From assembly GCA_964481205.1 (NCBI GenBank), contig CAYZYE010000003.1:857-64856 (forward strand): DNA of 64,000 nt. Reading direction: 5' to 3'. The notes beneath the pieces were generated by a model. That model saw nothing but the letters and a program-made list of their open reading frames with translations, searched no databases and was not told the origin of the DNA. This document shows positions 3,908 to 51,692 of the stretch, one piece after another; positions within the stretch are counted from its first letter, which is position 1; every line of letters starts with the position of its first letter. The translations under genes and the position numbers were made by a program. This DNA is from an uncultured Anaerolineae bacterium. Lineage in GTDB: Bacteria > Chloroflexota > Anaerolineae > JAFGEY01.

Positions 3908-3972
3908 CTCCCTGAATTGGAATCGTGCGCATTATACCATCGCTCCATATCGACGGCAAACAAAGGCGCGGC

Positions 3973-4818: not shown

Positions 4819-4916
4819 CACAACCTCTCGAGATATCGATCGCATCCTGATGAGCCAACGAAACAAAAAAAGGGCCAAGGGCACAAGCCTTTGACCCCCA
4901 AAAACGACGACCAGGT

Positions 4917-6239: not shown

Positions 6240-6254
6240 GGCTCCAAGCTCCTT

Positions 6255-7379: not shown

Positions 7380-7392
7380 GATCCGCCCCTTT

Positions 7393-8019: not shown

Positions 8020-8024
8020 AAATA

Positions 8025-8990: not shown

Positions 8991-9056
8991 CAGTCCTCCT
9001 TTGCTTTGCGGGGAATTGGGGTAGATGCAAACGAACAGATCCATTGTAACAAGGTT

Positions 9057-9464
9057 TCACGGTCTTGTCAATGACTTGTCACGCTCCAACGCCATCACCA
9101 TGGCAATGGCGTTTTCGCGGCTGTGCGAGAGGCTGATCGCCCACCGGTCCAGACCCAGCTCTTGGGCCAGCTGGCAAGCTCTGCCGTAGAGAATCACCTC
9201 TGGCTGGCCGCGCAAGTTATTGCGCACCTCGATCTCGGTCCAGCTCAAGCCGCCGCCCCAGCCGACGCCCACGCCCAGCGCTTTGCCAACCGCTTCTTTG
9301 GCCGCAAAGCGCGCGGCCAAAGAGGCCATCTTGCCCCGGCAATACGCGATCTCGTCCGCCGTGTACACGCGGCGCAAAAAACGCTCACCCCAGCGCTCGA
9401 CCGCGCGCGCCAGGCGCGGAATCTCGATTATATCGACGCCAACGGCCAGTGGGACGGGTTGCAC
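9057..9464 (-). CDS. acpS: Holo-[acyl-carrier-protein] synthase
   Basis: GVDIIEIPR motif and length about 135 aa, typical of AcpS 4'-phosphopantetheinyl transferase. Confidence 0.85.
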   Translation of the reverse strand: MQPVPLAVGVDIIEIPRLARAVERWGERFLRRVYTADEIAYCRGKMASLAARFAAKEAVGKALGVGVGWGGGLSWTEIEVRNNLRGQPEVILYGRACQLAQELGLDRWAISLSHSRENAIAMVMALERDKSLTRP

Positions 9465-9491
9465 GACTTGCTCCTGGTATCAGACAATGTT

Positions 9492-10972: not shown

Positions 10973-12326
10973 TGACGCCCGGTATGTACAAGACATAGAG
11001 CGCCCGGTACGCCTTGTTGACGTCGAGGATGCCGTCGTGCCAGCCGCCCAGAGCATAGAGCGTCACGCCGTCTGTAGCGACGCCCATCTCGTACCACTCT
11101 TGAAGAAATGGCGATTTGAACCCTTGCCAGACGCCCTGGGCGGGATTGGCGTCGGCGGGCGTAAAAATCTCATTGTCCAGGACAAAACTCGACCCCAGTC
11201 CCCCGCCCACAATGTGCATTTTGCCATTGATCTCTACGGCGCCAATGCCCCCTCGCGGGCTGTTCATCGACGGGCAGGCAGCCCATTCGTCGGCGTTGGG
11301 ATCATAGACCTCGCAAGTCGCCAGTTCCGACTCGCCATCGTACCCGCCAACAACATAGATGTGATCGTTGAGCGTCACGGCAGCGCCATAGCCGCGCGGC
11401 GTGAGCATCCCGGCCAATTCGGCCCACCGATCTTGCTGCGGGTCATAGCGATACGAGCCGGCCAGCGGCGCCCGGCCATCCCACCCGCCAAACAAGTACA
11501 GATCGCCGGCATACGCCGTCGCGGCATAAGCGCAGGCCGCCTGCGGCATCGACTGCGCCGCGCGCCAACTCCCCAACGCGCCGTCGTTTGGATCGTATAC
11601 CTGGAGAGTGTTGGTTACTGTATCATCAGACAGCATGCCGCCGGGAAGCAGTATCTTGCCGCGCAACGAGACCGCTTGCACGTTCGATACGGCTGTGATC
11701 TGGGGCGCGCCGCTGACCCAGGTGTTGGTCTGAATATAATAGATCTCGACCGCATCGCTGACGCCGTCGGCGGTGACGCCGGCGATGGCGAAAATGCGAT
11801 GGTTGTCATAGACGACGGCCAATTTGCTGCGCGGCGTCGGCATCGGGGGCAACGTTTTCCAGCGGTCGCCGGACAATGCCGGCGGTTGCCGCGCCGGGGT
11901 CGGCGTGTCTGGCACGGGCAGTGGTTTGAGCGGGCGCGGGCGCGTGACCCATACGCCGAGGGCAATCGCCAGGGCGGCAATGAGCATATAAACGCGCTTC
12001 CAGCGCGCCAGCGGCGGCGCAACCGGCGCGGAGACGGGCACGGCGTCCCGGACAACCTGGGGCGAAACAGATTCCGGTGTCTCCGGCTCGGGAGCAGGCG
12101 TCTCTGGAATGCCCAGTTTCACCCAACCACTCTGAATCGCCACCATCGTTGCCTCGGTGCGCGAGCGGACGTTCAACTTGGCATAGATGTTGCGCAAATG
12201 CACCTTGACCGTGTTGGGACTGATGTGCAATTCCTGGGCGATCTCGCGGTTGCTCAATCCCTGGCTCAACAAATGGAGCAACTCTAATTCGCGTTCGCTG
12301 GGTTGTTCGATCTCTGTTTGCGACAT
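10962..12326 (-). CDS. LuxR-type HTH regulator fused to a TM helix and extracytoplasmic Kelch beta-propeller
   Basis: The N-terminus is LSNREIAQELHISPNTVKVHLRNIYAKL (GerE/LuxR HTH). A Pro-rich linker and one TM follow. Repeated YxxxG/W Kelch blades fill the C-terminal 300 aa. Confidence 0.7.
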   Translation of the reverse strand: MSQTEIEQPSERELELLHLLSQGLSNREIAQELHISPNTVKVHLRNIYAKLNVRSRTEATMVAIQSGWVKLGIPETPAPEPETPESVSPQVVRDAVPVSAPVAPPLARWKRVYMLIAALAIALGVWVTRPRPLKPLPVPDTPTPARQPPALSGDRWKTLPPMPTPRSKLAVVYDNHRIFAIAGVTADGVSDAVEIYYIQTNTWVSGAPQITAVSNVQAVSLRGKILLPGGMLSDDTVTNTLQVYDPNDGALGSWRAAQSMPQAACAYAATAYAGDLYLFGGWDGRAPLAGSYRYDPQQDRWAELAGMLTPRGYGAAVTLNDHIYVVGGYDGESELATCEVYDPNADEWAACPSMNSPRGGIGAVEINGKMHIVGGGLGSSFVLDNEIFTPADANPAQGVWQGFKSPFLQEWYEMGVATDGVTLYALGGWHDGILDVNKAYRALYVLYIPGVTGQ

Positions 12327-35668: not shown

Positions 35669-38440
35669 ATGCGTACAAACGATCGTTCGTCCCTTTTGTA
35701 CCGCCAAATTTGCTTTTACATCGCCGTATCCATTGTCGTGACGGCGTTGGCGCTGCTCACCCCATCGACGCCGCATGCCGGCGCACCGCCCATTTTGACC
35801 CCGACGCCCGGCCCCACGCGGCCTCCACGGCGCGATTACGACCCGCCCGCCCCGCCGGAGCAGCTCTCGTCCAGCGACGCCTCGCCGGTCAACGCCGCCG
35901 AGGTCGGCGGATACCCCCGCCTGGTCAAACTGTGGGGCGGCGGCGACGAGCGCGAGATCGGCTTTTATGCTCATTATGACATGATTGTCAATGCCACGGC
36001 CTTTACCAAAACCCAGATCAGCTATTTGCACAGCCTGAACCCCAACTTGATCATGCTCTACTCTGGAACAGGCACCTATGACACGGACGACGGGCCGTTG
36101 GGCAGCCAGTGGGTCAACGCATCGCCCGGCACCTGGCAGTACGATTGTTTTTTGCGCGGCGCCAACGGTCAAATCCTCCGCGTGTACGAATGGGGTCACG
36201 GAATGTTTAACATGAGCGACAATGACTGCACCGACGCGATTGTCGATCACCTGGTTTCGCAGTTCGACCCGGACGTATACGACGGCGTGTTTTTTGACCG
36301 GATCAACGAGCGGATCACCGTCATCATCAACGGCATCGATCTCGATCACAATGGCACGGTAGATGACGCCGATTGGGTCGATCGACTATATTATACCGGG
36401 ACGCAGCGCTTTTTGAACCAGGTGCGAACCAGATTGGGCGCGCTGCTCGGTCACGAGACAATCATCGTCGGCAATGACGCGCCGCTGCCATACACCCCGC
36501 AGCTCAACGGGCGTGAATACGAGTTGAACGTGCGCGACATCCTGGACGCCAACAAAGACTGGATGTGGTTTCGCTACAATTACGAACAGTGGATGCAGGC
36601 ATCGCGCCAACCGGGGCTGACGATGGTAATGTCCAACCCGCCCACCTGGTTCCGCGCCAAATACGGGTTGCGACCTTATGTCAAGATACGCGGCGCGATG
36701 CGCGAACAGATCGCCGCCTATTACCAACGCATGCGTTTTGGGCTGACCACGGCGCTGCTCGAAGGCGGAACGTACAGTTTCGAGTTTGGCGACACCTGGC
36801 ACGGCAACGCCTGGTGGTACGACGAGTTCGACGGCGCGGGGTTGGGCAAAGGATACCTGGGACAGCCGCTTGGCGAGGCGTACCCGGCCGCCGGGCCGCT
36901 GATGACGCCCAACCTCTTGTTGAACCCCGGCTTTGAAGCGCCGTGGCCCGCGTCCTGGACGTTGCAAACGACAGGCGGCGCGCAAGCCACGCTGCACACT
37001 GCGCCCGTGACGGCGACCACATTGTCGCCCGTCGCGGCGCGCATCACCATCACCACGGCGGCGCAAGCCGACAATGTCCGCCTGGAACAGGCCAACCTCA
37101 CCTTGATCAAAGGCCAGGCCTACACCATGTCTTTCTGGGGCAAAGCGCCGCGCGCGCATTGGCGCGCCAACGTCAAACTGCACGCCCCCGGCGGCCTGGG
37201 GGCGTTGTACGGGCTGGATGACTATGTCGAGCTTGGCACAACCTGGCAGCAGTACTGGCTGCCGTTTACCGCCTCGTCGACGGCGGTGGATGCCATCTTG
37301 ACGATCGGCGTGGGCAACGCCTGGGGCGGCGATGTGTGGATCGACGAGGTCAACTTGCAGGAAGGCGTTTTGCCGCCGCTGTTTCGCCGCGATTTTGAGC
37401 ATGGCATCGTACTGTGCAACGCCGATAGATCGCCGCAAACAATTGATTTGACGGGCGAGGGGTTGCGCAAAATCGACGGCAAGCAAGCGCCGTTGGTACA
37501 GATTTTGATCGACGACGCTGAACAGTCGAGTGACACGTTCATCAAATATGGCGGCTGGGGCGGTCAAACGGCGGGGCATGACGAATGGGGTTCGACCTAC
37601 CACTATGCGCTGACCACCGGCAACCCAGATGGCTTTTTGAGCAAAGCCGTCTGGCGACCGACGATTTCGCACGCCGGCGATTACACCGTCTCCATTTGGC
37701 TGGCGCCGCACGAAAATTGCACGGCCACAGTGACGTATACCGTTCAATACCACGGCGGGAGTGCCTCGATGGCCGTCAACCCGGTGGTCACAGAACCCAC
37801 CTGGGCGGTATTGGGGTCGTATCCCTTTGCCGAGGGCGCGCACAATGCCGTGACCCTGACCAATTACACGCAGAGCAGTTGGGTTGTCGCCGACGTGGTC
37901 AAGTTCGAGTCGGCGGCGCGTTACAATGACGGCGCCGAGGTAACGGCGGTGACGCTGGCCGGCCAGGATGGGATCATTTTGCTGGGCGAGCCGGCGATCA
38001 AAAAAGTCGATTTTGACAAAAGCGCCAACCGTCCAAGCGTCCAACCGGGTGAGGTGGTGACTTTTACCCTGGTTTTTGGCCTGACCGGAACGCAGACGCA
38101 GACGATGCAGGCGCGGATGATCGACCCCAACCCGGCGCCGGCGTTCCTTGATATTTTGACCCGAACGATCGCCGGCGGCGCCGTCTATAGCCCGGCCATC
38201 GACGCCGTCGTCTGGGAAGGAGAACTCGGCGTGGGAACCGCCCCGATGTCGGTGACATTTGGCGTCCGGGTTGCCGGCGCGCCGTCGATCTGGGATCGAT
38301 TTGTGGTCAACCAGGCGGCAGTGCGGGATTTGGCGCAGCCCGGCGGCGCGCCTGTAGCCACGGCGTTCACATCCGTCCGTATTATTTCAAATATTATCTT
38401 GGAACCGCGAGCTTTTCTCCCGACGGTTCAAAAAAAGTAG
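35669..38440 (+). CDS. Large secreted protein with putative glycoside-hydrolase-like N-domain and C-terminal DUF11 repeat
   Basis: Signal/TM, then a Pro-rich segment. The C-terminal 130 aa resemble the DUF11 surface-protein repeat common in Chloroflexi. The catalytic assignment is weak. Confidence 0.5.
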   Translation: MRTNDRSSLLYRQICFYIAVSIVVTALALLTPSTPHAGAPPILTPTPGPTRPPRRDYDPPAPPEQLSSSDASPVNAAEVGGYPRLVKLWGGGDEREIGFYAHYDMIVNATAFTKTQISYLHSLNPNLIMLYSGTGTYDTDDGPLGSQWVNASPGTWQYDCFLRGANGQILRVYEWGHGMFNMSDNDCTDAIVDHLVSQFDPDVYDGVFFDRINERITVIINGIDLDHNGTVDDADWVDRLYYTGTQRFLNQVRTRLGALLGHETIIVGNDAPLPYTPQLNGREYELNVRDILDANKDWMWFRYNYEQWMQASRQPGLTMVMSNPPTWFRAKYGLRPYVKIRGAMREQIAAYYQRMRFGLTTALLEGGTYSFEFGDTWHGNAWWYDEFDGAGLGKGYLGQPLGEAYPAAGPLMTPNLLLNPGFEAPWPASWTLQTTGGAQATLHTAPVTATTLSPVAARITITTAAQADNVRLEQANLTLIKGQAYTMSFWGKAPRAHWRANVKLHAPGGLGALYGLDDYVELGTTWQQYWLPFTASSTAVDAILTIGVGNAWGGDVWIDEVNLQEGVLPPLFRRDFEHGIVLCNADRSPQTIDLTGEGLRKIDGKQAPLVQILIDDAEQSSDTFIKYGGWGGQTAGHDEWGSTYHYALTTGNPDGFLSKAVWRPTISHAGDYTVSIWLAPHENCTATVTYTVQYHGGSASMAVNPVVTEPTWAVLGSYPFAEGAHNAVTLTNYTQSSWVVADVVKFESAARYNDGAEVTAVTLAGQDGIILLGEPAIKKVDFDKSANRPSVQPGEVVTFTLVFGLTGTQTQTMQARMIDPNPAPAFLDILTRTIAGGAVYSPAIDAVVWEGELGVGTAPMSVTFGVRVAGAPSIWDRFVVNQAAVRDLAQPGGAPVATAFTSVRIISNIILEPRAFLPTVQKK

Positions 38441-41038: not shown

Positions 41039-42223
41039 TCAAACCGGCGGCGATACGTGAAAATTGCGTGAATTTTTCCCCGCTTTGGGTTTGCCGATCA
41101 CCAGCAACTCGTGCGTGTGGTTGGCCTTGTACACGCGGTTTTCGCGATCGATGTCGGCGCGGAAGCGTTTGAATTTGATCCGCCGCAGCTCGACCCCGGT
41201 GCAAAATGTCTCAAACAGCGCCAACAGCCGGTCCTCGGCGAGCAGCCCCTCATTGTTGTACGAAAAGAGCACATAGTCCGAGTTGATTCGCTCAAAAAGC
41301 CGCCTGAATCCGGCCTCGACAGCGCCGCGCATACAAAACACGGATCGCTGCACCTGCGCGCTGCGCAGGCCGGTCACGCCGCGCGGCTCGAACCGCTCCA
41401 GGTCCCAGCGGGCGATCGTTTCCAGAACATGGTAATTGGCGGCATACTGGCGTTGGTTGTACGGCGGGTCAATGTAAATGAGGCGCAGTTGGCCGGGGTG
41501 AAAGAGATCGAGCAGCGCGGCACTGTCCCGGCAAAAAACACGGTGGTGTTCAGCGGTGTGATGAGATGGAATGGGCTGCAAAGCGATCATTTTGAGCGGC
41601 TTTTGCGCCGACTTTTTGATCTGTTTGAGGTACGCGCCGTACACCGACGCGGTGTTGGCCACGCGGTCGGCGGACTCGATCAGGCAGGCAACGAGCCACG
41701 CCTGATCTCGCGCCGAGATCAGCCCCTCGTCGCGCCATGCCTCGATCTGGTCACGGATGGCCTGGATGCGCAGCCCATTCTCTTGCGCATAGTACATTCG
41801 CCCCGCCGCGCCGCCCTGACAATAGGCCTCGTAAAACGGCCCGCGCCGCCCCGGCAGTTGGCTCAGGTAGCTCAAGACGCGCGTGCAGGGCAAATCATCG
41901 ACCGGCGCGCCCCGGTTGTCGATCGAATAAGCGAGAATGTCGTCCAGGGGAACGCCAGAGACGCGCTTGCGCCAGCGCGGGTCGCGCAGCAACGTCTCAA
42001 AAGCCGGAAACGCATTGTGCTCGATCAAGGCGACATTGGTCACATACGAGTAATATTGCCAGTCGTTGGCAAAAGTCATGTGCCCGCGTCGCTTGAGCAG
42101 CTGGGCGACCGCGCCCGTCCCGGCAAAGAGATCGAGGGCCGCGCCGTCGCGCGGCACGCCGTACTCGTCCAACGACCGTTCGATTTCGGGCAGCAAACTG
42201 TATTTTGAGCCGATATAATTCAT
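41039..42223 (-). CDS. Dam-family (D12 class, alpha group) N6-adenine DNA methyltransferase, orphan
   Basis: Motif X MNYIGSKYSLLP, motif I LDLFAGTGAV, motif IV IYIDPPY. No adjacent nuclease-like gene. Confidence 0.8.
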   Translation of the reverse strand: MNYIGSKYSLLPEIERSLDEYGVPRDGAALDLFAGTGAVAQLLKRRGHMTFANDWQYYSYVTNVALIEHNAFPAFETLLRDPRWRKRVSGVPLDDILAYSIDNRGAPVDDLPCTRVLSYLSQLPGRRGPFYEAYCQGGAAGRMYYAQENGLRIQAIRDQIEAWRDEGLISARDQAWLVACLIESADRVANTASVYGAYLKQIKKSAQKPLKMIALQPIPSHHTAEHHRVFCRDSAALLDLFHPGQLRLIYIDPPYNQRQYAANYHVLETIARWDLERFEPRGVTGLRSAQVQRSVFCMRGAVEAGFRRLFERINSDYVLFSYNNEGLLAEDRLLALFETFCTGVELRRIKFKRFRADIDRENRVYKANHTHELLVIGKPKAGKNSRNFHVSPPV

Positions 42224-42261
42224 GGTTGCCCGTTCTGCTTGCCCACGAGGGGCGACGGCCA

Positions 42262-42430
42262 GGGCTGTTCAATTCTACAATCCAGCGGTTGAAACCGCGT
42301 TGGGTGAGCCGTTGGCTGGTCGTCCCCCTACGGCGACGAGTCCTCACCAGCGGTGGCGTCCACGCAGGTGGGACGCCCGGCCTTGGCCCGCCAGCGGTGA
42401 CTTTAGTCACAAATTAGAATTGAACAGCCC
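42262..42430. repeat. MITE-like element copy B (inverted; carries a 44-bp internal insertion relative to copy A)
   Basis: The reverse complement is identical to copy A apart from the insertion CGGGCCAAGGCCGGGCGTCCCACCTGCGTGGACGCCACCGCTGG. Confidence 0.8.
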
Positions 42431-42457
42431 TAGGGCGACGGCGCAGCCGGCCTTGTA

Positions 42458-45400
42458 TTACCGACCTGGTTTCTTGATCACGCGGATGTGCGCCGGCTCG
42501 CGCCGGGTGATCGCGCCCGGATTGGCGAGGTCAAACGCCCAGGTGGGCTGCGTTTGAACGGCGGCGACCATCACGCCCTGGAGGTGATAGTGAAAATTCA
42601 ACGGTTGTTCTGCCGACAGGTTGGTCAGGTAGACCCGCATCTGCCCGCCGGCCTGCCTGTAACCGGCAATGACGTTTTCCTGGAGCAGACGATCCCACTC
42701 GGCGGAAATGAGCGCCGCGCCCGGCGGCAGTCCCAGATTCAGGACGACGAGCGGCGCGACGCCGGGGCGGTTGAGCATCACACCGACGGTGGCGGTGATC
42801 GTCTCGCCCAAACCCATCGCGGCGCGATCAAAACTGTACGCCAGCGAGACGACCTCTTCTTCCGGCGAGGGCAGTGGCGCCTGCGACCAGGGCAAAACGT
42901 ACCCGGCAACCAGTTGGTAAAAGATCGGCCCGCCCTGCACCTCGATCCTGACGTCATTGTATCCCTTGGCCAAATCGTCAAAATTGAAAACATAGACGGT
43001 CACGGCTTTGTCGCTTCCGGCCGGGATGGTCACGCTTTCCGACAGATCGACCTTGTCCGAGCGGAGCGCCCCGACCGCAACGCGGACGGTCGCTGCTTGC
43101 GACGGTTGCGCGTCTTGCCATCCGGCGTCGACGGCGGCGGCCAGCGCACGCAGCGCCCAATGGGTCGCCGTCGGCGATCCCCAGGCCCCAAAAGCGTCGC
43201 GGCTGTAGGCCAGCGCGGCCAACCCCTGCCGCGCCGCGTCCACATCTGGCCTTGCGCGCAACAAGGCCCAGACCGCCAGCGCGGTTTGCTCGACCTCGGC
43301 CGCTGCCCCCACTGCGCCGTCAAAGGTTGGCAACCCGCTGCGCCAGATGGCCCGATCCTCGTCCATTTCGGCCATCTCGATCAAGCGCGAGACGGCGCGT
43401 GCGAGAACGGCGTCGTCGATCTCGCCATCTTGGGTCGAATCGCCGGCCGCCGCCCGGTAAGCGACCAGCGCGTGAACGGTCAGCGCCAGCGTATAGGCGT
43501 CTTGCGCCTGATCGGCATAGCGCGCCAAATGCTCGACCGCGGATTTTGTCGCCGGCGCGCCGCCATAACCGGCGTCGATCAGCGCCCAGGCGATATAAGC
43601 GGTAAAAGGCAACTCGGGGCGAGGCAGCCGCTCCCAACCGGGTGGCAGCGTTGCCGCGCGCCACATGCCGCCGGGGGTTTGGCGCTCGATCAACCACCGC
43701 GCGGCGTGATCGACGACCTGCGGATCGACCCAGGTCAGCCCGGCCAGGTCGGAAAGGCAAAACAATGTGGACGCCGTTTGCACCAGGTCGCCGTCGCCTC
43801 GGCCAAGGAGCGAAAACCCGCCCGCCCCGGCCTCAAAAGCCAGCAAATGTTGATAGTTGGCCGCGGCCGCGCGTTTGATCTGCGCGTCGAGGGGCGGGGA
43901 CAGCCTGCCGCCGGCGGCCAGGCGATCGCGCAGCAGCGCCAGATGCCGGGTTTCGGCCACCAGGTGGGTGAGGGTGTCGCCGGAAAAAGTCGTCGGGTAG
44001 AGCGCCGGCGTGGAGACCTGCGTCGGCGAAAACACCTGATGAGACACCCAGCGATCCAAGTTCTTGTGCGCCAGCGCGCTTTGCAAACCCTCTTGCAACA
44101 TGCTCGCCCAACCGGGATAAATTTTGACGGCGATCAAGGCTGTGTCCGGGCGCGCGCTCCAGGGAATACGAATTTTGTACGTGTCCGTCTCGCCGGTTTG
44201 CCGGTTGTAACGACGGACGATGGGTTTGCCGTCGGGCAAGACGCGCACCGGGTGGGTGATCACCCGACCGGCGACGGAAGCAGTGATCTCGATACTTTGT
44301 TGCCCCGGCTGGCGCGCCGAAAGTGGCGCAACAAGCGCGCCCACACCGAGAGGGGGCAGTTGAATCACCTGTGGCTCGATCTCTGGAAACAGCGGCGCGG
44401 CGTGTGCGTTCTGGGCGATGGTGAGATGAATCGTTTGTGAAACCGCCGCGTGGTTCCGAATCATGATCGGCGCGGCCAATTCGTCGCCGGCGGTGAGCGT
44501 ATCTGGAAGTAAAGCATCAATGCTCAACGGTGTATAGACATTCAACTCGATCTGCGCAACGCCTTGCTCGCCCTGCCGGGTCGATGCCAGGACGACAAGG
44601 CGCGAGGTCGCGTCGACGGGTATGTCAAGCGCGGCCTTGCCCTGCTCGTCGGTGACGGCCGGCTGCCAATAGAGCGTTTCCCAGCCGGGGCGAGGAGCGG
44701 CCCACAAAGTTGTCAGAGACTGCGCCGGCGGCAGGGCAACGGTTCCGGCGAATGGCGGCGGCGCGTCCGCTTGCACGGCGCTGAGGTCGATGTCCAGATC
44801 GGGAATGGGCGGCTGCTCGACATGCGCGGCCTGGGCCGATAGCACGACGCCGATCGCGCCGGCGATCAGCAGGCACATGGCCGCAAACGCGGCGCCGGCG
44901 GCGACCGGCGCGCGGCGGCGCCGCAGTCCCAAACCCAAGATGTACAGACTCGTCGAGGCGAGGACGAGCGCCGACAGGAACGCCGCGCTGTGCTGCGCGC
45001 CGGGCATACCGTCCTGGGCCAGCGTCTTGCACAATCCCCAACCGAGCGCCAGAGCTGCGACCAGCAGCGCCGGTACGGTTTGCGCCCAGCCGTCGCGTCG
45101 ATCCCAGCCAAAGACGGCGAGCGCCGTCAGGATGCCCAACCAGCTCAAGCCCAGGACAAGGGCGAACCCCGGGCCAAAGAGGAGGGGGCCAAAATGAGCC
45201 ATCAATATCGCGCCCAGCGCCGCAAAAGGAAAAACCAGGAGGCCGCCCGGCGCGTTTTTGAGCCAAAAGCCGGCCGTGGGCGGCGATTCGAGGCGCCGCG
45301 TTTGCAGCAACACGACGAGCGACAGCAGTGCGGCCAGCCCGGCGAGGGCAACGACCAATCGCGCGGACAGAAAGACGTATTGTGCGCGGCGGTGGGCGCG

Positions 45401-47419
45401 CGCGGCAGCGACGCCGGAAAACTGGCGTTTGATCTGCGCCGGCGCCGGCTTGGGGCGGCTGAGCACGCCGGCGCGGCGGATCGAGATGCGCGGCGGCGCA
45501 CTCGCGGCGCGGCCGGCGGGGTCGAACCACATCTGGGGCGGTTCGGACCGCGTTGGCAGCATGCGATCTGTCGCGCCGATGACGGCCACACTCAACGCGC
45601 CGGGGACGCCCGGCCCTGTGGCGCGGGTGATTTGCAGATCAATGATCGCCCTCTCGCCCGGCGCATAGACCTGCCGTCCGGCTTGAATATGAACGTTGAT
45701 CCGGCGAGCGGGGAGGATGGATATGGGTCTGGCATCCTGTACCAATGAGCCGTCGGCGAGCAAGGCATAAGCGTGCAGGATGAGCGCGCCCGGCGGCGCG
45801 GCGTCGATCGTAAAATGGCCGTGTCCGTCGATACAAGACGTATCATACGTGGCGAACAATGTCCCGGCACTGAACAGATCGAGGTACAGGGCGGGCGCAT
45901 CATTTGGGGCCAAGAGATCGACCTCGATCTTGTCGCCCTGGTCATAGACCGTTTTCGTCGGGCGGAGCAGCAGGTGAAACAGCCCCGGTTCGATGCTCAG
46001 GTTGGCCGTCGCCGCCCCGGTTTGGCCGTCTGCGCTCTGCGCCGTCACCTGCAAAGTGATCGCCTGGTCGCCGGCGGGAAGGTAATGCCATTGCGCCAGG
46101 CCGTCGGAATCGGTTTCCAATTCGACTTGCGCGCCGTTGGCAGCGACCGTCAGTGTGCAACGCGCGGGGCGTCCATCGAGAGTCATAGCGCGCAAATAGA
46201 CAATGTTGTCGAGGCCGGGTTTGAGTTGCGTGCTCTCGGCAAAAACACGAATGTCGATCGCTTGCGCGGCGATGAGGCGTTGGACGCGGCGCTCGACAGC
46301 GCGCCACCCGTCGGGCGTCACGGCCTGGACTGCCAATGTCAGGGCGGTCTGCCCGCGTCCCTGGGCGGCGGGCAGGTCAAAGGCAAAGGACAACGCGCCG
46401 GTCTCGCTGCCGGTTGCAGCAATGGGGGGCAGGTCTTGCGGCGCAGCGCCTTGAATTTGCGGCCGGATGAGGAACTGGGTGCCAGAAATGGGACGTTTCC
46501 AGCGATCGGCGGCCTGGACCGTCCCCTGAACGCGCTGCCCGTACAGGTAATAAGGCCGGTCAAGTTGAATGTCCAGGTATATTAAAGGTGGTGTATCTAG
46601 TTCGACATCGACAAGCTGTTCGGCAGTGATCGGCGCCAGATCGCCGGCGTTCAGGGCGGCGACAACGCGGTACGCGCCGGGGCTGATCTGCTCGGCCAGA
46701 GCAAAAGAGGCCGTCGCCAGGCCGTATTCGGTGGTGGTGAGCGTTTCGCTCCACAGCAGGTTTTCCCTGGCGTCGAACAGCGACCAGGTCAGAGGGCAGC
46801 CGGCCAGCGGCGCGCCGGTCATCTCGTCGCCGGCGAACAGACGCACATAGATCGATTGCCCAGGATGATAGCGGACATTGTCGGTGTTCAGGTCGAGGCG
46901 GAGGCGACGTTCGATGACGACGGGCTGGATGACTTGTTGTGCGCCAACCGGCCCCGCGACATCAACGACCAGATTGTACTGCCCCCGGGCGTTGGCCGGT
47001 ACGTCGAAATGCGCCAGCGCCGTGCCCTGGGCGCCGGTCTGGGCGACAAAGATCGGATCGGGCACGCTGCCCCCGTCGAGCGGCGACAGCGCCACGCGCA
47101 TTTCGGCGCCGGGGAGCGGCCGGCCGGCGCCGGGGTCATAGAGGATGGCGCGGATCGATCCTGGCGCGCCGGAGGTCAAGGCGTTCGAGCCGATGACGAG
47201 CAGCTCTTGGCGGTCGGGTGGCGCCGGTGTGTAGGCCGGCAGGGGCGGGTTGGGCAGTGAGGCGGCGTCGCGCAGCGGCCACAGCGCCCACGCTGTCATG
47301 GCGAGGACGGCCAATTGGAGATAGATGAATCGTCCTCGCCAAAAAAGGCGCAGGCTGCGTTTCCAGAGTGAGGGGTTGTGGTTGGTGGGTTCAGGGTTCA
47401 TGGTATAAACTTGCGACAA
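42458..47419 (-). CDS. Alpha-2-macroglobulin-like giant envelope protein with internal multi-TM insertion (thioester-less)
   Basis: N-terminal signal anchor and repeated MG-like beta-sandwich segments. A C-terminal alpha/alpha-toroid TED-like region. No CxEQ thioester was seen. About 6 hydrophobic helices lie at residues ~690-880. Confidence 0.6.
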   Translation of the reverse strand: MSQVYTMNPEPTNHNPSLWKRSLRLFWRGRFIYLQLAVLAMTAWALWPLRDAASLPNPPLPAYTPAPPDRQELLVIGSNALTSGAPGSIRAILYDPGAGRPLPGAEMRVALSPLDGGSVPDPIFVAQTGAQGTALAHFDVPANARGQYNLVVDVAGPVGAQQVIQPVVIERRLRLDLNTDNVRYHPGQSIYVRLFAGDEMTGAPLAGCPLTWSLFDARENLLWSETLTTTEYGLATASFALAEQISPGAYRVVAALNAGDLAPITAEQLVDVELDTPPLIYLDIQLDRPYYLYGQRVQGTVQAADRWKRPISGTQFLIRPQIQGAAPQDLPPIAATGSETGALSFAFDLPAAQGRGQTALTLAVQAVTPDGWRAVERRVQRLIAAQAIDIRVFAESTQLKPGLDNIVYLRAMTLDGRPARCTLTVAANGAQVELETDSDGLAQWHYLPAGDQAITLQVTAQSADGQTGAATANLSIEPGLFHLLLRPTKTVYDQGDKIEVDLLAPNDAPALYLDLFSAGTLFATYDTSCIDGHGHFTIDAAPPGALILHAYALLADGSLVQDARPISILPARRINVHIQAGRQVYAPGERAIIDLQITRATGPGVPGALSVAVIGATDRMLPTRSEPPQMWFDPAGRAASAPPRISIRRAGVLSRPKPAPAQIKRQFSGVAAARAHRRAQYVFLSARLVVALAGLAALLSLVVLLQTRRLESPPTAGFWLKNAPGGLLVFPFAALGAILMAHFGPLLFGPGFALVLGLSWLGILTALAVFGWDRRDGWAQTVPALLVAALALGWGLCKTLAQDGMPGAQHSAAFLSALVLASTSLYILGLGLRRRRAPVAAGAAFAAMCLLIAGAIGVVLSAQAAHVEQPPIPDLDIDLSAVQADAPPPFAGTVALPPAQSLTTLWAAPRPGWETLYWQPAVTDEQGKAALDIPVDATSRLVVLASTRQGEQGVAQIELNVYTPLSIDALLPDTLTAGDELAAPIMIRNHAAVSQTIHLTIAQNAHAAPLFPEIEPQVIQLPPLGVGALVAPLSARQPGQQSIEITASVAGRVITHPVRVLPDGKPIVRRYNRQTGETDTYKIRIPWSARPDTALIAVKIYPGWASMLQEGLQSALAHKNLDRWVSHQVFSPTQVSTPALYPTTFSGDTLTHLVAETRHLALLRDRLAAGGRLSPPLDAQIKRAAAANYQHLLAFEAGAGGFSLLGRGDGDLVQTASTLFCLSDLAGLTWVDPQVVDHAARWLIERQTPGGMWRAATLPPGWERLPRPELPFTAYIAWALIDAGYGGAPATKSAVEHLARYADQAQDAYTLALTVHALVAYRAAAGDSTQDGEIDDAVLARAVSRLIEMAEMDEDRAIWRSGLPTFDGAVGAAAEVEQTALAVWALLRARPDVDAARQGLAALAYSRDAFGAWGSPTATHWALRALAAAVDAGWQDAQPSQAATVRVAVGALRSDKVDLSESVTIPAGSDKAVTVYVFNFDDLAKGYNDVRIEVQGGPIFYQLVAGYVLPWSQAPLPSPEEEVVSLAYSFDRAAMGLGETITATVGVMLNRPGVAPLVVLNLGLPPGAALISAEWDRLLQENVIAGYRQAGGQMRVYLTNLSAEQPLNFHYHLQGVMVAAVQTQPTWAFDLANPGAITRREPAHIRVIKKPGR

Positions 47420-48140
47420 AGCCTGTGCCCCGGTAGATCGGGGCGATGCGCCACAAGTCGATTTGGGCGCAGAAATGGACGTCTTGATCGTAGCCCAGGT
47501 CGATCAATCGCGACGCTGCTTTCGAGGAGAGGAACAGTTCCAGGCTGGTCGCGGCGTCGACGGGCGGCAATGGCGTTTTTGTCGCCGCACCCAGGGCAAC
47601 AAGTCGATGCGCGATAATGTTTAGTGAAAAGGTATCTTCGATGGCCGGTCGTTCGCCAATGCCCGCAGCGACCAGGGTGATGGCGCTGCCGCGCGCGCGC
47701 GCCAGGTGCAGCGCAGTCCGGGCGACGGCAGCGGCGTTGACCAATGCGCCGGTCAGCACCGCCGCCGCGCCCTGGAGCGCGGCATGGGTGCAGCGCGTGC
47801 CGTTCGATGTGGTCAGCACAAGTGTCTTGCCGGCGATCTGGCGGCGATTGGCCCAGATTTCGGTGGGCGAGTTGCCAAAGTGCAAGTTTGGCACTCGGAC
47901 CCCGCCGCGTTCGCCGGCGACGATTGTGTCCGGGTCGGTCAGATAGGCCGAGGCTTGCTCGACGGTCAGCGCCGGGATGACTGCCGTCGCGCCGGCGGCC
48001 AGCGCGGTGGGGATGGTGGCGCTGGCGCGCAGGGCGTCAATGATCACGACGACATCGCCCCGCGCCGCGCCGCGTTGTGCCCCCGCCGCGCCCAACTCGC
48101 TCCAGACATGGATCGCGTCTCGGTGTGCGCTCATTTTCAC
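47391..48140 (-). CDS. comB: 2-phosphosulfolactate phosphatase family protein
   Basis: The N-terminal VVIIDALRASATI and full-length collinearity match the ComB family. Confidence 0.75.
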   Translation of the reverse strand: MKMSAHRDAIHVWSELGAAGAQRGAARGDVVVIIDALRASATIPTALAAGATAVIPALTVEQASAYLTDPDTIVAGERGGVRVPNLHFGNSPTEIWANRRQIAGKTLVLTTSNGTRCTHAALQGAAAVLTGALVNAAAVARTALHLARARGSAITLVAAGIGERPAIEDTFSLNIIAHRLVALGAATKTPLPPVDAATSLELFLSSKAASRLIDLGYDQDVHFCAQIDLWRIAPIYRGTGFVASLYHEP

Positions 48141-48535
48141 CCGGCCACGATTTTGATCGCTACCCGGCGGGTGCGCGGCCCGTCAAATTCGGCCAAATAG
48201 ATGCCCTGCCACGTTCCCAGCGCGAGCCGCCCGTCGAGCACGGGCACAAAGTGGGCAAAGCCGGTCAGGCTGGCTTTGATGTGCGCCGCCGAGTTGCCCT
48301 CTAGATGTTCGTATCCGTCGCGCCAGGGGACGATTTTGTCCAATTCGCGGAGGATGTCGGCGCGGACGGCGGGGTCGGCGTTTTCATTGATCGTCAGCCC
48401 GGCGGTGGTGTGCGGGACAAAGATGTAGCAGATGCCCTGCCGGATGCCGCATTGCGAGAGGACGCGCTGCACCTGGGAGGTGATGTCGACAAGGCAGGCG
48501 TGGGCCGGCGTGGGCACCGATATTTGTTCGAGCAT
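48137..48535 (-). CDS. YjbQ/UPF0047 family (secondary thiamine-phosphate synthase-like) protein
   Basis: HTTAGLTINENADP...GTWQGIYLAEFDGPR conserved blocks. 132 aa. Confidence 0.8.
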   Translation of the reverse strand: MLEQISVPTPAHACLVDITSQVQRVLSQCGIRQGICYIFVPHTTAGLTINENADPAVRADILRELDKIVPWRDGYEHLEGNSAAHIKASLTGFAHFVPVLDGRLALGTWQGIYLAEFDGPRTRRVAIKIVAG

Positions 48536-48541
48536 CGTGGT

Positions 48542-49912
48542 TTACCTTTCTGCTGCGCGGGGATCGACCAGGGGCGCGCCGATGCGGGTGATCGTGGAGG
48601 CGGCAATGTTTTTAGTCGCGTTGCAGGTGTCGATCACCAGTGAGGCGTGTTGGACAATCCAGGCATAGTCGTATTGGGTGTGTCCGGTGACGATGACCAC
48701 GGCGTCCTGGCGGGCCAACAGATCGGCGCTCAATGGCTGCGAGGTCATTGCGGTCTGGCGCGGGTGAAACACGTCTTGCCCAACGCTGTATCGAGGCACA
48801 TACGGGTCGTTATAGATGACTTGGGCGCCGGCGTTCAACAACAGTTCGATGATTCGCTCGGCCGGGGAGTTGCGCGCGTCGTCGATGTCGCGTTTGAAAG
48901 CCACGCCCAAGACCAGGATGCGCGCCTGGTTGAGGGGATGGCCCCGCATGCTCAGTGCGCGGCCAATGCGTTCGACGACGTGGTAGGGCATCGACTGGTT
49001 GACCTCGGCGGCCAGCTCGATGAATTTGGTGTAAAAGTCAAACTCGCGCGCTTTCCAGGACAAATAGTATGGATCGACGGGGATGCAGTGCCCGCCGACG
49101 CCCGGCCCCGGATGGAAGGACATAAAGCCAAATGGTTTGGTTGACGCGGCTTCGATCACCTCCCAAAAGTCAATGTTCATTCGTTCCGAGAGCAAGGCCA
49201 ACTCGTTGACCAGGGCAATGTTGACGCTGCGGAAAATGTTTTCGAGCAGTTTGGTCATCTCGGCGGCGCGCGGCGTCGAGACGGTCAACACTTGCGGGGT
49301 CAGTTTGGTGAACAGGTCGGCGGCCAGTTGGGCGCAGTGGGGGGTAAGCCCGCCGACCACTTTGGGCGTGTTTTTCACACTAAAGGTCTTGTTTCCGGGG
49401 TCGATCCGCTCTGGTGAAAAAGCGAGGTAAAAGTCTTGCCCGGCGCGCAGGCCGGTGGTCTCGAGGATCGGTTGTACGACCTCTTCGGTGGTGCCCGGAA
49501 AGGTGGTGCTTTGCAGCACGACGAGCTGGCCGGAGCCAAGCCGGGGGGCAATGCCGCGCGCCGCCGATTCGACAAAGACCAGGTCGGGCGCTTTCATGGC
49601 GTCAAAGGGAGTCGGTACGCAGATAAAGACGACATCAATGTCTTTGATCACGTCGTAATCGGTGGTGGGGTGAAACAGGTTTCGCGTCACCAGATCGGCG
49701 ACGGTTTCGCCGGGCACGTCGGGGATGTAGCTTTTTTTTGCGATTAACGTAGAGATTTTACGCTCGTCTACGTCTAATCCGACGACATCATAGCCGCATT
49801 GGGCGAACCCTGTGGCCAGGGGCAGGCCAACGTATCCCAGGCCGAGCACGCATATCCGGGCGCGGCGGGCCGCGATCTTGGCCTGGAGTTGTGCAAACAG
49901 TTGGTGCGACAT
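48542..49912 (-). CDS. Nucleotide-sugar dehydrogenase (UDP-ManNAcA/UDP-glucose 6-dehydrogenase family)
   Basis: N-terminal NAD motif ICVLGLGYVGLP. A catalytic Cys region. The ATG MSHQ start at 49910-49912 was verified. Confidence 0.85.
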   Translation of the reverse strand: MSHQLFAQLQAKIAARRARICVLGLGYVGLPLATGFAQCGYDVVGLDVDERKISTLIAKKSYIPDVPGETVADLVTRNLFHPTTDYDVIKDIDVVFICVPTPFDAMKAPDLVFVESAARGIAPRLGSGQLVVLQSTTFPGTTEEVVQPILETTGLRAGQDFYLAFSPERIDPGNKTFSVKNTPKVVGGLTPHCAQLAADLFTKLTPQVLTVSTPRAAEMTKLLENIFRSVNIALVNELALLSERMNIDFWEVIEAASTKPFGFMSFHPGPGVGGHCIPVDPYYLSWKAREFDFYTKFIELAAEVNQSMPYHVVERIGRALSMRGHPLNQARILVLGVAFKRDIDDARNSPAERIIELLLNAGAQVIYNDPYVPRYSVGQDVFHPRQTAMTSQPLSADLLARQDAVVIVTGHTQYDYAWIVQHASLVIDTCNATKNIAASTITRIGAPLVDPRAAER

Positions 49913-50099
49913 GGGCGTTCCTCCGGTGGGCAGGTCGATAATTGGCGGGTGGTTCAAATGGGGGTCAGTATAGATGAAAACGCCGGTCAAGTCAAACGCT
50001 CGCCGGTCAGGGCAATCGCATCTTGACTGGCTGGGCGCCAAAACGGCGGTTCAAAGGCCAATAAGCGCATAAAAACGTACCGACGGGAGCAGCTGCTCC

Positions 50100-50246: not shown

Positions 50247-51692
50247 ATGCCCGAACAAACAGAGAAACCCCAGGCTCGCAAAATCAAACTCGAAGACCAG
50301 GCGTCGAAAACCAGACACACGATCACCATCGACGGACAAAAGATCGACTATACGGCAACCGCCGGCACGATGGCGTTGAAAAGCCAGGAAGGCGAGGCCC
50401 AGGCGTCAATCTTTTACGTCGCCTATACGCGCGACCAAATAGAGGACAGGCGCCAACGCCCGATCACCTTTTCGTTCAACGGCGGCCCCGGCTCTTCCTC
50501 GGTGTGGCTGCATTTGGGGCTGCTCGGCCCACAGCGCGTGGCGCTGACCAACCCAGACGGCCACCCGCTGCCCCCGCCGTTCAAACTGGTCGAAAACACA
50601 TCCTCGCTGCTGGACGAGACCGATCTGGTCTTTATCGACCCGGTGAGCACCGGCTACAGCCGCGCCGCCACAGAGGACAAGGCCAAAACATTCCACAACT
50701 TTGAAAAAGACATCGAATCGGTGGGCGAGTTCATTCGCCTGACCACAACGCGGCTCAAGCGTTGGGCGTCGCCCAAATACCTGATCGGCGAGAGTTACGG
50801 CACCACGCGCGCCGCCGGGCTGGCCAACTTTATGCAGGAACGATACGGCCTGTACCTGAACGGGATCATGCTCATCTCGTCGATCTTGAACTTTCAAACG
50901 GCGCGCTTTACCCCAGGCAACGACCTGCCCTACATCCTCGTTTTGCCCACGTTGACTGCCGCCGCGTGGTTCCACAACAAGTTGGCGCCGGATTTGCGCC
51001 AGGATCTGCGTAAAACGCTGGATGAGGTCGAAGCATTTGCGCGCACCGAGTACGCAGCGGCGCTATTTCGCGGCGCGTCTTTGCCGGCAAACGAACGCGC
51101 CGCGATCGCGCAACAGTTGGCGCGATACACCGGCCTCTCGCCCCAATACGTCGAACAAGCCAACCTGCGAATCAATGTCTCGCGCTTTACCAAAGAGCTG
51201 CTGCGCGATCAGCGACAGACCGTCGGCCGCCTGGACACCCGCTTTACCGGCGCCGATCGCGACGCCGCCGGCGAACAGTTCGAGTTCGACCCCAGTCTGG
51301 CCACCATCACCGGGCCGTATACCGCCGCCCTGAACGATTACGTCCGCCGGCAGCTCAAGTTCAAGAGCGACCTGCCGTATGAAATTTTGACCAACCGCGT
51401 GCAGCCGTGGGACTATGGCAAATTTCAAAACCAATACGTCGATGTGGCCGAATCGCTGCGCAAAGCAATATGTCAAAACCCCGCGCTCAGAGTCTTTGTC
51501 GCCAACGGCTATTATGACCTGGCCACGCCCTATTTTGCCACCGAATACACATTCGACCACCTGGGTTTAGAGCCGGCACTGCAAAAAAACATTTCGATGG
51601 CATATTACCAGGCCGGGCACATGATCTATATCCACGAACCATCGTTGATCCGCCTCAAAAAACATCTTGCTGCCTTTGTGCAAAACAACTGA
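50247..51692 (+). CDS. Peptidase S10-like serine carboxypeptidase
   Basis: GGPGSSS and a GESYGT catalytic-Ser motif. Confidence 0.65.
   Translation: MPEQTEKPQARKIKLEDQASKTRHTITIDGQKIDYTATAGTMALKSQEGEAQASIFYVAYTRDQIEDRRQRPITFSFNGGPGSSSVWLHLGLLGPQRVALTNPDGHPLPPPFKLVENTSSLLDETDLVFIDPVSTGYSRAATEDKAKTFHNFEKDIESVGEFIRLTTTRLKRWASPKYLIGESYGTTRAAGLANFMQERYGLYLNGIMLISSILNFQTARFTPGNDLPYILVLPTLTAAAWFHNKLAPDLRQDLRKTLDEVEAFARTEYAAALFRGASLPANERAAIAQQLARYTGLSPQYVEQANLRINVSRFTKELLRDQRQTVGRLDTRFTGADRDAAGEQFEFDPSLATITGPYTAALNDYVRRQLKFKSDLPYEILTNRVQPWDYGKFQNQYVDVAESLRKAICQNPALRVFVANGYYDLATPYFATEYTFDHLGLEPALQKNISMAYYQAGHMIYIHEPSLIRLKKHLAAFVQNN

Follow-up and report, generated by a model that had tools for sequence, protein, structure and literature searches.

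A thioester-less A2M/C3-fold protein of Chloroflexota with a conserved six-helix transmembrane block at the bait-region position

Members of the alpha-2-macroglobulin (A2M) family are regarded as traps, either soluble or held by a lipid or GPI anchor, in which the bait is a free loop. CD109 is GPI-anchored, and C3/C4/C5 carry a helical anaphylatoxin (ANA) module inside the MG6 domain. Type I bacterial A2Ms, represented by E. coli ECAM/YfhM and Salmonella A2M, are lipoproteins with a CLEQ thioester and a soluble bait, and usually occur with pbpC (PMC4498604, PMC3328433). MagD of Pseudomonas aeruginosa and E. coli YfaS constitute the thioester-less type II, and MagD is a soluble periplasmic protein that is held at the membrane by partners from the six-gene mag operon (PMC5764988, PMC3735191). 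Here, we describe an A2M-like gene from a 64,000-nucleotide stretch of DNA of an uncultured Anaerolineae bacterium (the window).

The ORF list and its translation define an uninterrupted reading frame on the minus strand (42458..47419) of 1653 codons counted from a TTG. An ATG at 47401, six codons downstream of the TTG at 47419, yields a product of 1647 aa plus stop and is probably the true start, given that the closest homologs, P0002 and P0032, start with MNP/MNQ. The complete coding sequence from this ATG (42458..47401), to which homolog N-termini align, encodes a 1647-aa product that is 100% identical to the database protein P0001, and we use this name throughout. Residue ranges of domains, linkers and helices follow the 1647-aa form unless marked otherwise, and all feature coordinates refer to the minus strand. 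The P0001 gene is confirmed as a real and intact A2M/C3-fold gene. NCBIfam holds no family for P0001, and the members of its cluster are all named 'hypothetical protein'. The neighbouring genes encode a ComB phosphatase, a UPF0047 protein, a UDP-glucose dehydrogenase and a Dam-type methyltransferase; no pbpC or mag-type gene was found to adjoin the P0001 gene, in agreement with the preliminary description of this DNA, which had pointed out that pbpC is not adjacent.

P0001 is modelled with the A2M/C3 fold in the order MG1-6, MG7, CUB, TED and MG8. MG1 to the first half of MG6 extend over aa 60-610 (45572..47224), a region that AF2 models as all-beta with pLDDT above 90, indicating that the MG1-MG6 ring is present. 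Pfam detects MG2 at aa 183-255 (E 8e-16) and weakly MG4, and Foldseek aligns the N-terminal half with the C3/C4 beta chain (E ~1e-28, target-normalised TM-score 0.60-0.68). The second half of MG6, MG7 and CUB follow at aa 907-1139 (43985..44683), opening with an ETLYWQP motif that corresponds to FPETLxW of the relatives. This segment is modelled with pLDDT ~90, resembles A2ML1, C5 and C3 in Foldseek and contains a Pfam A2M match just below threshold (aa 915-998 in the 1653-aa numbering, scoring 20.8 bits where the cut-off is 21). The TED alpha/alpha toroid spans aa ~1140-1430 (43112..43984) and is supported by Pfam TED_complement (aa 1171-1427, E 6e-15) and AF2 helices with pLDDT above 90. The CUB return strands and an MG8/receptor-binding-like beta domain complete the protein at aa ~1438-1647 (42461..43090), with AF2 strands of pLDDT above 90 and Foldseek similarity to A2ML1, CD109 and TEP1; high confidence (pLDDT above 90) extends over aa ~950-1647 as a whole. 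A hydrophobic stretch at aa 1547-1565 was considered as a TM helix and rejected, as AF2 assigns it to an MG8 beta strand. Pfam, AF2 and Foldseek thereby agree with both halves of the preliminary assignment, which placed stacked MG domains behind an N-terminal signal anchor and a TED-like toroid at the C-terminus.

Which branch of the A2M family does P0001 resemble? The C-terminal half finds human A2ML1 as its best Foldseek match (E 2e-35), then C5, CD109, C3 and TEP1, and the alignments to A2ML1, C5, CD109 and TEP1 span ~780-880 columns. Across both halves of P0001, sequence identity to solved structures is only 13-17%. Foldseek also recovers type I bacterial A2M (4u48, E 2e-28; 5a42). Near relatives of P0001 match the eukaryote-type Pfam families MG3, MG4, A2M_BRD, A2M_recep and TED_complement, P0001 itself has no match to the bMG-type domains PF11974, PF17972 and PF17973, and a neighbour-joining (NJ) tree clusters it with eukaryote-type-like bacterial A2Ms. 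The fold of P0001 is nearer to eukaryote-type A2M/C3/CD109 than to E. coli YfhM/YfaS.

P0001 has lost the thioester. The CxEQ motif is absent from the entire protein, as the preliminary description had already noticed, and a MAFFT alignment with thioester-bearing relatives places the degenerate hexapeptide GDTLTH (aa 1141-1146, 43964..43981) on GCFEQ, with Thr for Cys and His for Gln. In the alignment and NJ tree, P0001 belongs to a monophyletic thioester-less clade of 12 members, none of which retains the Cys. The Cys column of this clade holds Ser, Thr or Ala, and the Gln is not invariant: P0001 and P0130 have His there, and P0143 has Pro. A Ser/Thr-Gln oxo-ester in place of the thioester was rejected, since several clade members carry Ala at the Cys position and some have His or Pro instead of the Gln. 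Five proteins (P0001, P0002, P0126, P0128 and P0130) have in common ~27 inserted residues ahead of the former thioester site. Pfam A2M_BRD and A2M_recep find no match in P0001, and the long branch of the clade and its loss of Pfam-detectable BRD and receptor-binding domains indicate that it may have changed function.

The two halves of P0001 are separated by an insertion of aa 611-906, which sits between AF2 strands 602-609 and 909-916 and directly after which the Pfam A2M region starts (aa 909). Hydrophobicity analysis detects a single segment near the N-terminus (aa 31-49) and six segments in the centre, within aa 680-865 (both in the 1653-aa numbering), the latter with Kyte-Doolittle peaks of 1.7-2.6, and AF2 models all seven as long helices. 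A basic juxtamembrane helix (aa 655-673) and the six-helix TM block together occupy 44825..45439, as delimited by hydropathy, AF2 and profile search, with helices of ~19-28 residues at approximately aa 674-700, 717-738, 742-766, 776-794, 805-826 and 832-859. The AF2 confidence of the block helices reaches only pLDDT 50-70, a weak point of the trap reading proposed below. An LFGPG turn between TM2 and TM3 and a W..RRD motif after TM3 are conserved, and R671, G743, G745, W754 and G756 are invariant in the clade alignment. The block occupies the bait-region/anaphylatoxin insertion point between the two halves of MG6. The preliminary description regarded the A2M architecture as interrupted by six hydrophobic helices; hydropathy, AF2 and the charge pattern given below agree on the helices, and their location is not a random interruption, as they replace the bait region inside MG6.

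Two linkers flank the block. The linker before it (aa 611-654, 45440..45571), defined by AF2, the clade consensus and its invariant columns, begins with a disordered part (pLDDT below 50 at aa 612-634) and continues with an R/K-rich part, including ...RRAGVLSRPKPAP, that is conserved within the clade. Judged from the alignment, the segment ahead of TM1 is conserved and not hypervariable, which is unusual for a bait and counts against a trap. The linker after the block (aa 860-906, 44684..44824) is Pro/Asp/Ala-rich, variable in the clade consensus and disordered (AF2 pLDDT 30-37), and it is the best candidate for an exposed bait.

The topology is deduced from hydropathy, AF2 helices and the positive-inside pattern. 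The basic N-tail (aa 1-24, MNPEPTNHNPSLWKRSLRLFWRGR, 47330..47401) is assigned to the cytoplasm from its sequence and from the zf-HC2 domain of relatives, and it precedes the signal anchor TM0 (aa 25-43, 47273..47329; Kyte-Doolittle 1.62, AF2 helix aa 12-47), which may be cleaved as a signal peptide. The N-in orientation is fixed by relatives that carry a cytoplasmic zf-HC2 domain before TM0. Within the block, the mean K+R count is 8.8 in loops 1-2, 3-4 and 5-6 versus 1.3 in loops 2-3 and 4-5, and the alternation holds in 84 of 84 proteins, so that this even number of helices has both flanks outside the cell. MG1-MG6 are thus predicted to lie outside, followed by six membrane passes, and the completion of MG6 together with MG7, CUB, TED and MG8 is predicted to lie outside as well.

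The TM block is conserved in a family that extends across Chloroflexota and is not peculiar to the P0001 gene, which answers the question of conservation that the preliminary description had left to a homolog search. An exhaustive HMMER search of 1.84 billion proteins with a TM-block profile returned 52 cluster representatives at E<=1e-3, 17 of them at E<=1e-10, with the best match besides the query at E 5e-40, and all long matches are A2M-like proteins with the block at ~aa 620-1010. A word-indexed homology search with the same profile returned one fragment only. The candidate origin of the block from a known membrane-protein family was discarded, as Pfam has no match inside it and no free-standing TM-block family appeared among the 1.84 billion proteins. 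Among 71 related loci with a complete bait window, six TM helices are present in 52 and five were detected in 2, and the remainder mostly show a two-TM hairpin. The 1+6 TM A2M architecture is common to ~55 independent Chloroflexota genome assemblies, and nearly all of 80 related loci come from Chloroflexota MAGs. P0002 has the same continuous architecture at 41% identity over 100% of the length, as do 11 further full-length clade members. The A2M/C3 fold is known; we could not find an architecture with a TM block in the bait region, or any polytopic A2M, described in the openly readable literature searched, consistent with the preliminary statement that this is not a described A2M arrangement.

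Two further features occur in relatives of P0001 only. The thioester Cys codon is TGA in 39 of 78 loci (relatives L002-L068, P0001 gene not included), and the reading frame runs on for 474-502 aa past it. A SECIS-like hairpin with GG/GU in its loop starts 11 nt after the UGA, and its synonymous sites are frozen (0-0.3 bit versus 0.7-1.7 in the Cys forms). Given the in-frame TGA at the thioester Cys and the hairpin, these relatives from 39 genomes are probably selenocysteine (Sec) forms of the A2M-like protein. General TGA reassignment was rejected because each gene of ~1650 codons has exactly one in-frame TGA and several terminate with TGA. Rfam at gathering thresholds gave no match in three TGA loci, and no tRNA-Sec was found in the flanks of the 39. 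The probable Sec relatives would use Sec to form an acyl (selenoester) warhead and not for redox catalysis; no such selenoprotein was found in the literature searched, and no Sec-containing A2M appears in openly readable literature, including the main-text terms of 2026 selenoproteome papers. Some relatives with the 1+6 TM architecture are fused to an N-terminal zf-HC2 anti-sigma domain, and in part of these anti-sigma forms the protein stops after MG7, without TED. In loci L039 and L061, an ECF sigma factor gene immediately precedes the anti-sigma form, overlapping or abutting its start. An A2M-type anti-sigma factor is likewise not described in the openly readable literature searched.

What is the biological function of P0001? 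We tentatively propose, at somewhat less than even confidence, that P0001 is tethered to the membrane as a non-covalent trap or decoy for proteases, with its bait region embedded in the cytoplasmic membrane. The N-tail would stay cytoplasmic, with TM0 crossing outward, and a foreign protease would cut one of the two disordered ectoplasmic linkers that flank the helix bundle, the variable Pro-rich linker after TM6 being the likeliest target. The cut would trigger an A2M-type rearrangement. With the thioester gone, a protease could only be captured sterically or through affinity, not covalently, and the helix bundle and TM0 would hold both cleavage fragments and any bound protease on the cell. 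Anaerolineae-type Chloroflexota are generally thought to have no outer membrane, and such retention would matter in a lineage with none to retain a soluble A2M. An A2M that is monomeric and has no thioester may be a poor trap for proteases. It also counts against a trap that no protease or partner gene was found to be kept near the P0001 gene or at its syntenic counterparts L001 and L003.

Trapping may instead have been abandoned, with the A2M frame now used at the cell surface, held in the membrane by seven helices, for structure, adhesion or organisation of the envelope. Such neofunctionalisation would fit the lost thioester, the long branch, the ~27-aa insertion ahead of the former thioester site, the A2M_BRD and A2M_recep domains undetected by Pfam and the conserved pre-TM segment. 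It would also fit the gene order with UDP-glucose dehydrogenase, UPF0047 and ComB, which is kept in syntenic loci whose proteins are 37-47% identical. However, P0001 has kept the A2M domain set complete, down to CUB, TED and MG8 and with high model confidence, as well as disordered bait-like linkers, and nothing evident connects the neighbouring genes to it in function. We consider the loss of trapping rather unlikely.

A role as a protease sensor is a serious alternative, although a rather unlikely one. The ectodomain would detect cleavage of its bait linkers, and TM0 and the block would pass the rearrangement on or make the protein accessible to intramembrane proteolysis, informing a cytoplasmic partner. 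The zf-HC2 fusions with the same 1+6 TM architecture and the ECF sigma genes adjoining them in L039 and L061 point in this direction. The anti-sigma forms without TED suggest that trapping is dispensable there, and the conserved LFGPG and W..RRD motifs exceed the seeming needs of a mere anchor. P0001 itself, however, has a cytoplasmic tail of only 24 aa, loops of 10-16 aa and no output domain; no sigma factor, kinase or regulator adjoins its gene or the syntenic loci L001 and L003, and its helices have no conserved polar or charged residues in the clade alignment. It is equally doubtful that the six-helix block and TM0 act as the membrane-spanning relay in a bacterial receptor for proteases that converts bait cleavage outside into a signal inside. 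If they do, P0001 would be a domain-minimal version of a system that is hard-wired to ECF sigma factors via a fused anti-sigma domain in its relatives, which carry a thioester or, probably, a selenoester formed by selenocysteine, and the family would amount to a system by which Chloroflexota use the complement/A2M fold for surveillance at their surface.

A frameshift or misassembly fusion of unrelated genes, or a buried soluble core mistaken for TM helices, the two outcomes that the preliminary description had named as refutations, is very improbable: its only footholds are the block pLDDT of 50-70 and a topology derived from hydropathy, AF2 helices and loop charges, whereas the architecture recurs in P0002, 11 further clade members and ~55 independent assemblies and so is no fusion artefact, the helical block with its charge alternation perfect in 84/84 proteins is not a buried core, and the split of MG6 across the block assigns both halves to one fold.

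A conserved polytopic module at the bait position means that the trigger of this large conformational machinery is linked directly to the cell membrane. If P0001 still traps proteases, as we tentatively favour, it illustrates a way in which a trap, along with its cleavage products, could be retained on the surface of cells that have no outer membrane. If it signals, it would represent a new input mechanism for envelope-stress regulation, and relatives tie the same ectodomain to ECF sigma/anti-sigma pairs. The thioester-less P0001 also provides a natural control in a series of thioester and probable Sec relatives.

Compared with type I A2M, which is proposed to trap proteases on the outer face of the cytoplasmic membrane, P0001 would act at the same location but has no lipoprotein signal, CLEQ motif, soluble bait or pbpC; the L-x-G/A-C lipobox is absent, and the N-terminus is a long hydrophobic anchor. 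Like type II MagD/YfaS, P0001 is without CxEQ and associated with the cytoplasmic membrane, whereas it has no mag-like operon and no bMG Pfam matches, and MagD has no TM block. P0001 differs from the eukaryote-type thioester proteins in its missing thioester and its extra N-terminal TM anchor, and its insertion is a six-helix TM bundle in contrast to their soluble bait loop or ANA domain. Nevertheless, P0001 shares with A2M, A2ML1, CD109, TEP1 and C3/C4/C5 the same order of MG1-6, MG6 insertion, MG7, CUB, TED and MG8. It is membrane-tethered like CD109, and its TM block and the ANA module of C3/C4/C5 are both foreign helical modules at the same insertion point.

The A2M-like gene of the window lies on the minus strand in an uninterrupted ORF (42458..47419) of 1653 codons counted from TTG. 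Translation almost certainly begins at the ATG at 47401, because the nearest homologs begin with MNP... or MNQ..., and the resulting 1647-aa product is the same as P0001, the identical database protein. Residue numbers from Pfam and hydropathy follow the 1653-aa ORF and are 6 above the 1647-aa numbering used for the rest. In the 1653-aa numbering, Pfam detects MG2 (aa 183-255, E 8e-16), TED_complement (aa 1171-1427, E 6e-15), a weak MG4 match and an A2M domain (aa 915-998) whose 20.8 bits fall under the 21-bit cut-off, and hydropathy locates one segment at the N-terminus (aa 31-49) and six strong ones in the centre (aa 680-865). The NCBIfam search of the protein returned no family. The preliminary description had listed A2M-like MG domains, a signal anchor, a TED and six hydrophobic helices, all of which are present in the sequence. 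The GC content over the gene (window 42001-48000) is ~0.65, compared with 0.56-0.61 in the flanks, and may be a simple result of an Ala/Gly/Pro/Leu-rich composition.

Two overlapping AlphaFold2 models of P0001 were built from alignments of 47 and 50 homologs. One covers the C-terminal part (aa 600-1647) at a mean pLDDT of 76.7; in it, MG7, CUB, TED and MG8 mostly exceed 90. Compared with the PDB, it matches best with human A2ML1 (E 2e-35), C5, CD109, C3, frog oocyte and human A2M, and TEP1, ahead of the Salmonella and E. coli A2Ms. The other, covering the N-terminal part (aa 1-1010) at a mean pLDDT of 77.3, is all-beta over aa 60-610 with pLDDT >90 and gives target-normalised TM-scores of 0.60-0.68 against the C3/C4 beta chain (MG1-MG6). 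These models indicate that the protein is a genuine A2M/C3-fold member and that it is nearer to the eukaryote-type branch than to YfhM/YfaS.

Where does the six-helix block reside in this fold? Both models end the N-side strands at aa 609, after which come a disordered stretch (aa 612-634, pLDDT <50) and one short strand. A basic juxtamembrane segment (aa 655-673) then passes as a continuous helix into TM1, and five further long helices extend up to aa 859. After a second disordered stretch (aa 860-906, pLDDT 30-37), beta structure restarts at aa 909, the exact start of the Pfam A2M domain. The block thus occupies the position of the A2M bait region and of the anaphylatoxin domain of C3/C4/C5, and MG6 is divided around it in the models. 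Given this placement, the block replaces the bait region and does not interrupt the fold at random.

The block recurs well beyond the window. The closest homolog, P0002 from an Anaerolineae MAG, aligns over 100% of the length at 41% identity, displays the same 1+6 pattern and likewise has no CxEQ. A HMMER profile of the block only (alignment A3), run against 1.84 billion cluster representatives, matched 52 proteins at E<=1e-3, of which 17 reach E<=1e-10 and 4 reach E<=1e-30. In every long match the block sits at approximately aa 620-1010 and, if an FPET motif can be recognised, precedes it; short matches resemble fragments, and no free-standing membrane-protein family with the block was found among the matches. 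With each GTDB species represented by one genome, a scan found 80 related loci, nearly all in Chloroflexota MAGs (Anaerolineae, Anaerolineales, Caldilineaceae, Thermoflexales and 'Chloroflexia'). The bait window is complete in 71 loci, 52 of which have six TM helices; most of the remainder show a hairpin of two helices joined by an RRRR turn. Judged from sequence, the helix number in the bait region is always even (five were detected in 2/71), a requirement if the two halves of the fold are to share one membrane side. The interpretation in the preliminary description is thus supported, and sharpened in that the block is a bait replacement conserved in a Chloroflexota-wide family. In Caldilineaceae loci (L052, L056, L063, L072 and others) and in P0006, P0010-P0013 and P0016, the RRRR hairpin replaces the six helices. 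The Caldilineaceae two-helix forms begin with a lipoprotein-type signal (LLLGC), and P0016 (from an Isosphaeraceae MAG) and P0010 have a second hairpin helix resembling a prepilin/DUF1559-type N-terminal motif (LLLPAVQSAREA...).

Loop charges indicate how the helices are oriented. Loops 1-2, 3-4 and 5-6 average 8.8 Lys+Arg versus 1.3 in loops 2-3 and 4-5 (84/84 proteins with a clean six-helix cluster), and in P0001 the three charge-rich loops contain RR, RR and RRRR, respectively. Because relatives carry a cytoplasmic zf-HC2 anti-sigma domain ahead of the N-terminal anchor TM0, the N-terminus is placed inside the cell. The predicted topology that follows from both observations is N-in, MG1-6 out, six passes, and MG6'-MG7-CUB-TED-MG8 out. 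Hydropathy, AlphaFold2 helices and the charge pattern agree on the six TM helices originally proposed, and recurrence across genomes together with the charge pattern led us to reject a gene fusion, a frameshift or a buried core.

The thioester reported missing at the outset is indeed lost: CxEQ is absent from the whole window protein, and the site aligned to GCFEQ of the relatives reads GDTLTH in P0001. In the 12 full-length clade members the Cys column is Ser, Thr or Ala, and the Gln column varies (His in P0001 and P0130, Pro in P0143); on these residues, a thioester or conserved oxo-ester is impossible in the clade. In a neighbour-joining tree of the post-bait region, the thioester-less 6TM clade is monophyletic and long-branched and adjoins thioester-bearing 2TM, soluble-bait and 6TM groups. 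An insertion of ~27 aa (…LDRWVSHQVFSPTQVSTPALYPTTF…; window 43982-44062, approximately aa 1114-1140 of P0001) directly precedes the degenerate site in P0001, P0002, P0126, P0128 and P0130 and is missing from the other clade members and all thioester-bearing relatives in the alignment.

Outside the window, the thioester Cys codon is TGA in 39/78 related loci (L002, L004, L005 with TGA at 11292-11294, L007-L025, L027-L030, L032, L033, L035, L036, L043, L048-L050, L055, L059, L060, L065 and L068), reading ...LPHG-TGA-FEQSTSATYPN..., and TGT or TGC in the other 39. Gene callers end the TGA proteins at ...LPHG, but every TGA gene stays in frame for 474-502 aa to the true stop with no second in-frame TGA. 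A hairpin (GUACGUC-GGC-GACGUAC, apical loop GG or GU) starts 11 nt after the UGA, with 97% of hairpin cells paired and two double-sided changes. Third-position entropy of its six codons is 0-0.30 bit in TGA forms versus 0.68-1.66 in Cys forms, whereas flanking codons vary freely in both. The hairpin position matches that of the bacterial SECIS, located immediately downstream of the UGA in one account (PMC1802603). The TGA relatives probably are A2Ms that contain selenocysteine and bear a selenoester as warhead. If they are true selenoproteins, it is their Sec that would form this selenoester, and selenoesters are more reactive than thioesters as acyl donors. The TGA forms constitute one clade within the Chloroflexota 6TM group of the neighbour-joining tree; L065, from a Planctomycetota MAG, differs in its downstream sequence, its bait is soluble, and its TGA apparently arose independently. 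No tRNA-Sec was found in the flanks of the 39 loci, Rfam gave no match in three of them, and the selenoprotein literature searched, including 2026 selenoproteome papers, does not mention a Sec-containing A2M family.

The N-terminal zf-HC2 domain, also outside the window, occurs in many relatives with TM0 and a 2- or 6-TM bait (P0011, P0013, P0016, P0019, P0129, P0133, P0141, P0151, P0155, P0165, P0167 and P0170), and some of these forms lack a TED, their sequence stopping after MG7. In L039 (sigma 3987-4598, A2M-like 4595-9805) and L061 (sigma 3683-4603, A2M-like 4605-9749), the A2M-like gene comes immediately behind an ECF sigma gene that overlaps or abuts it. Such relatives would be anti-sigma factors with the whole A2M ectodomain as sensor; no paper on an A2M-type anti-sigma factor was found in the literature searched.

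In the window, the A2M-like gene start overlaps the stop of a ComB-type phosphatase gene; UPF0047 and UDP-glucose dehydrogenase genes lie further upstream and a Dam-type methyltransferase gene downstream. This order is common to the window (47391-50041 and 41039-42223), L001 (5337-7908) and L003 (2708-3880), even though the A2M-like proteins of the window and the two loci share no more than 37-47% identity. A functional link of these neighbours to the A2M-like gene is not evident from the sequences. No pbpC, as noted at the outset, and no mag-type operon or regulator adjoins the gene in the window, L001 or L003. A divergent serine carboxypeptidase S10 homolog (50247-51692, +) lies about 2.8 kb upstream and is not at the matching position in L001; a 923-aa GHL15/CBM4_9/Golvesin_C protein (35669-38440, +) is encoded further downstream.

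What might the window protein do? Models and topology together show a complete A2M machine on the outer side of the cell membrane, whose predicted trigger region is the bundle between two disordered ectoplasmic linkers of ~45 aa each, and the sequence lacks a covalent warhead. We tentatively propose, at slightly under even chances, a trap or decoy for proteases that is tethered to the membrane and acts non-covalently. A foreign protease would cut a disordered linker, freeing MG6 for an A2M-type rearrangement; in soluble A2M, one account has bait retraction triggering the conformational change (PMC9352918). The variable, Pro/Asp-rich post-TM6 linker would be the better candidate, and the pre-TM segment is R/K-rich, yet conserved within the clade. 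TM0 and the bundle would hold both cleavage fragments on the cell, which would make sense in Chloroflexota, a lineage usually regarded as having no outer membrane. The long branch, the thioester loss and the loss of Pfam-detectable BRD and RBD would also suit a neofunctionalised structural or adhesive scaffold, which we consider rather unlikely. A protease sensor signalling via the seven helices is supported by the anti-sigma relatives but quite improbable for a protein with no cytoplasmic domain and no adjacent regulator.

The preliminary description held a polytopic A2M architecture to be undescribed, and we likewise found no description of one, or of a TM module at the MG6 insertion point, in the literature searched. 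On sequence evidence, the window gene belongs to a widespread and undescribed family of Chloroflexota A2M-fold proteins with a membrane-embedded bait region, and is one of its thioester-less members. Type I bacterial A2Ms include lipoproteins often paired with PBP1c, whereas the window protein has no lipobox, thioester or pbpC. Two bacterial types are distinguished in one account (PMC5764988), the thioester-bearing type I and the thioester-less type II, such as MagD with the mag operon. The window protein has only the missing thioester in common with type II. It is membrane-tethered like the TEP-fold protein CD109 and, like C3/C4/C5, carries a module of helices where MG6 is interrupted.
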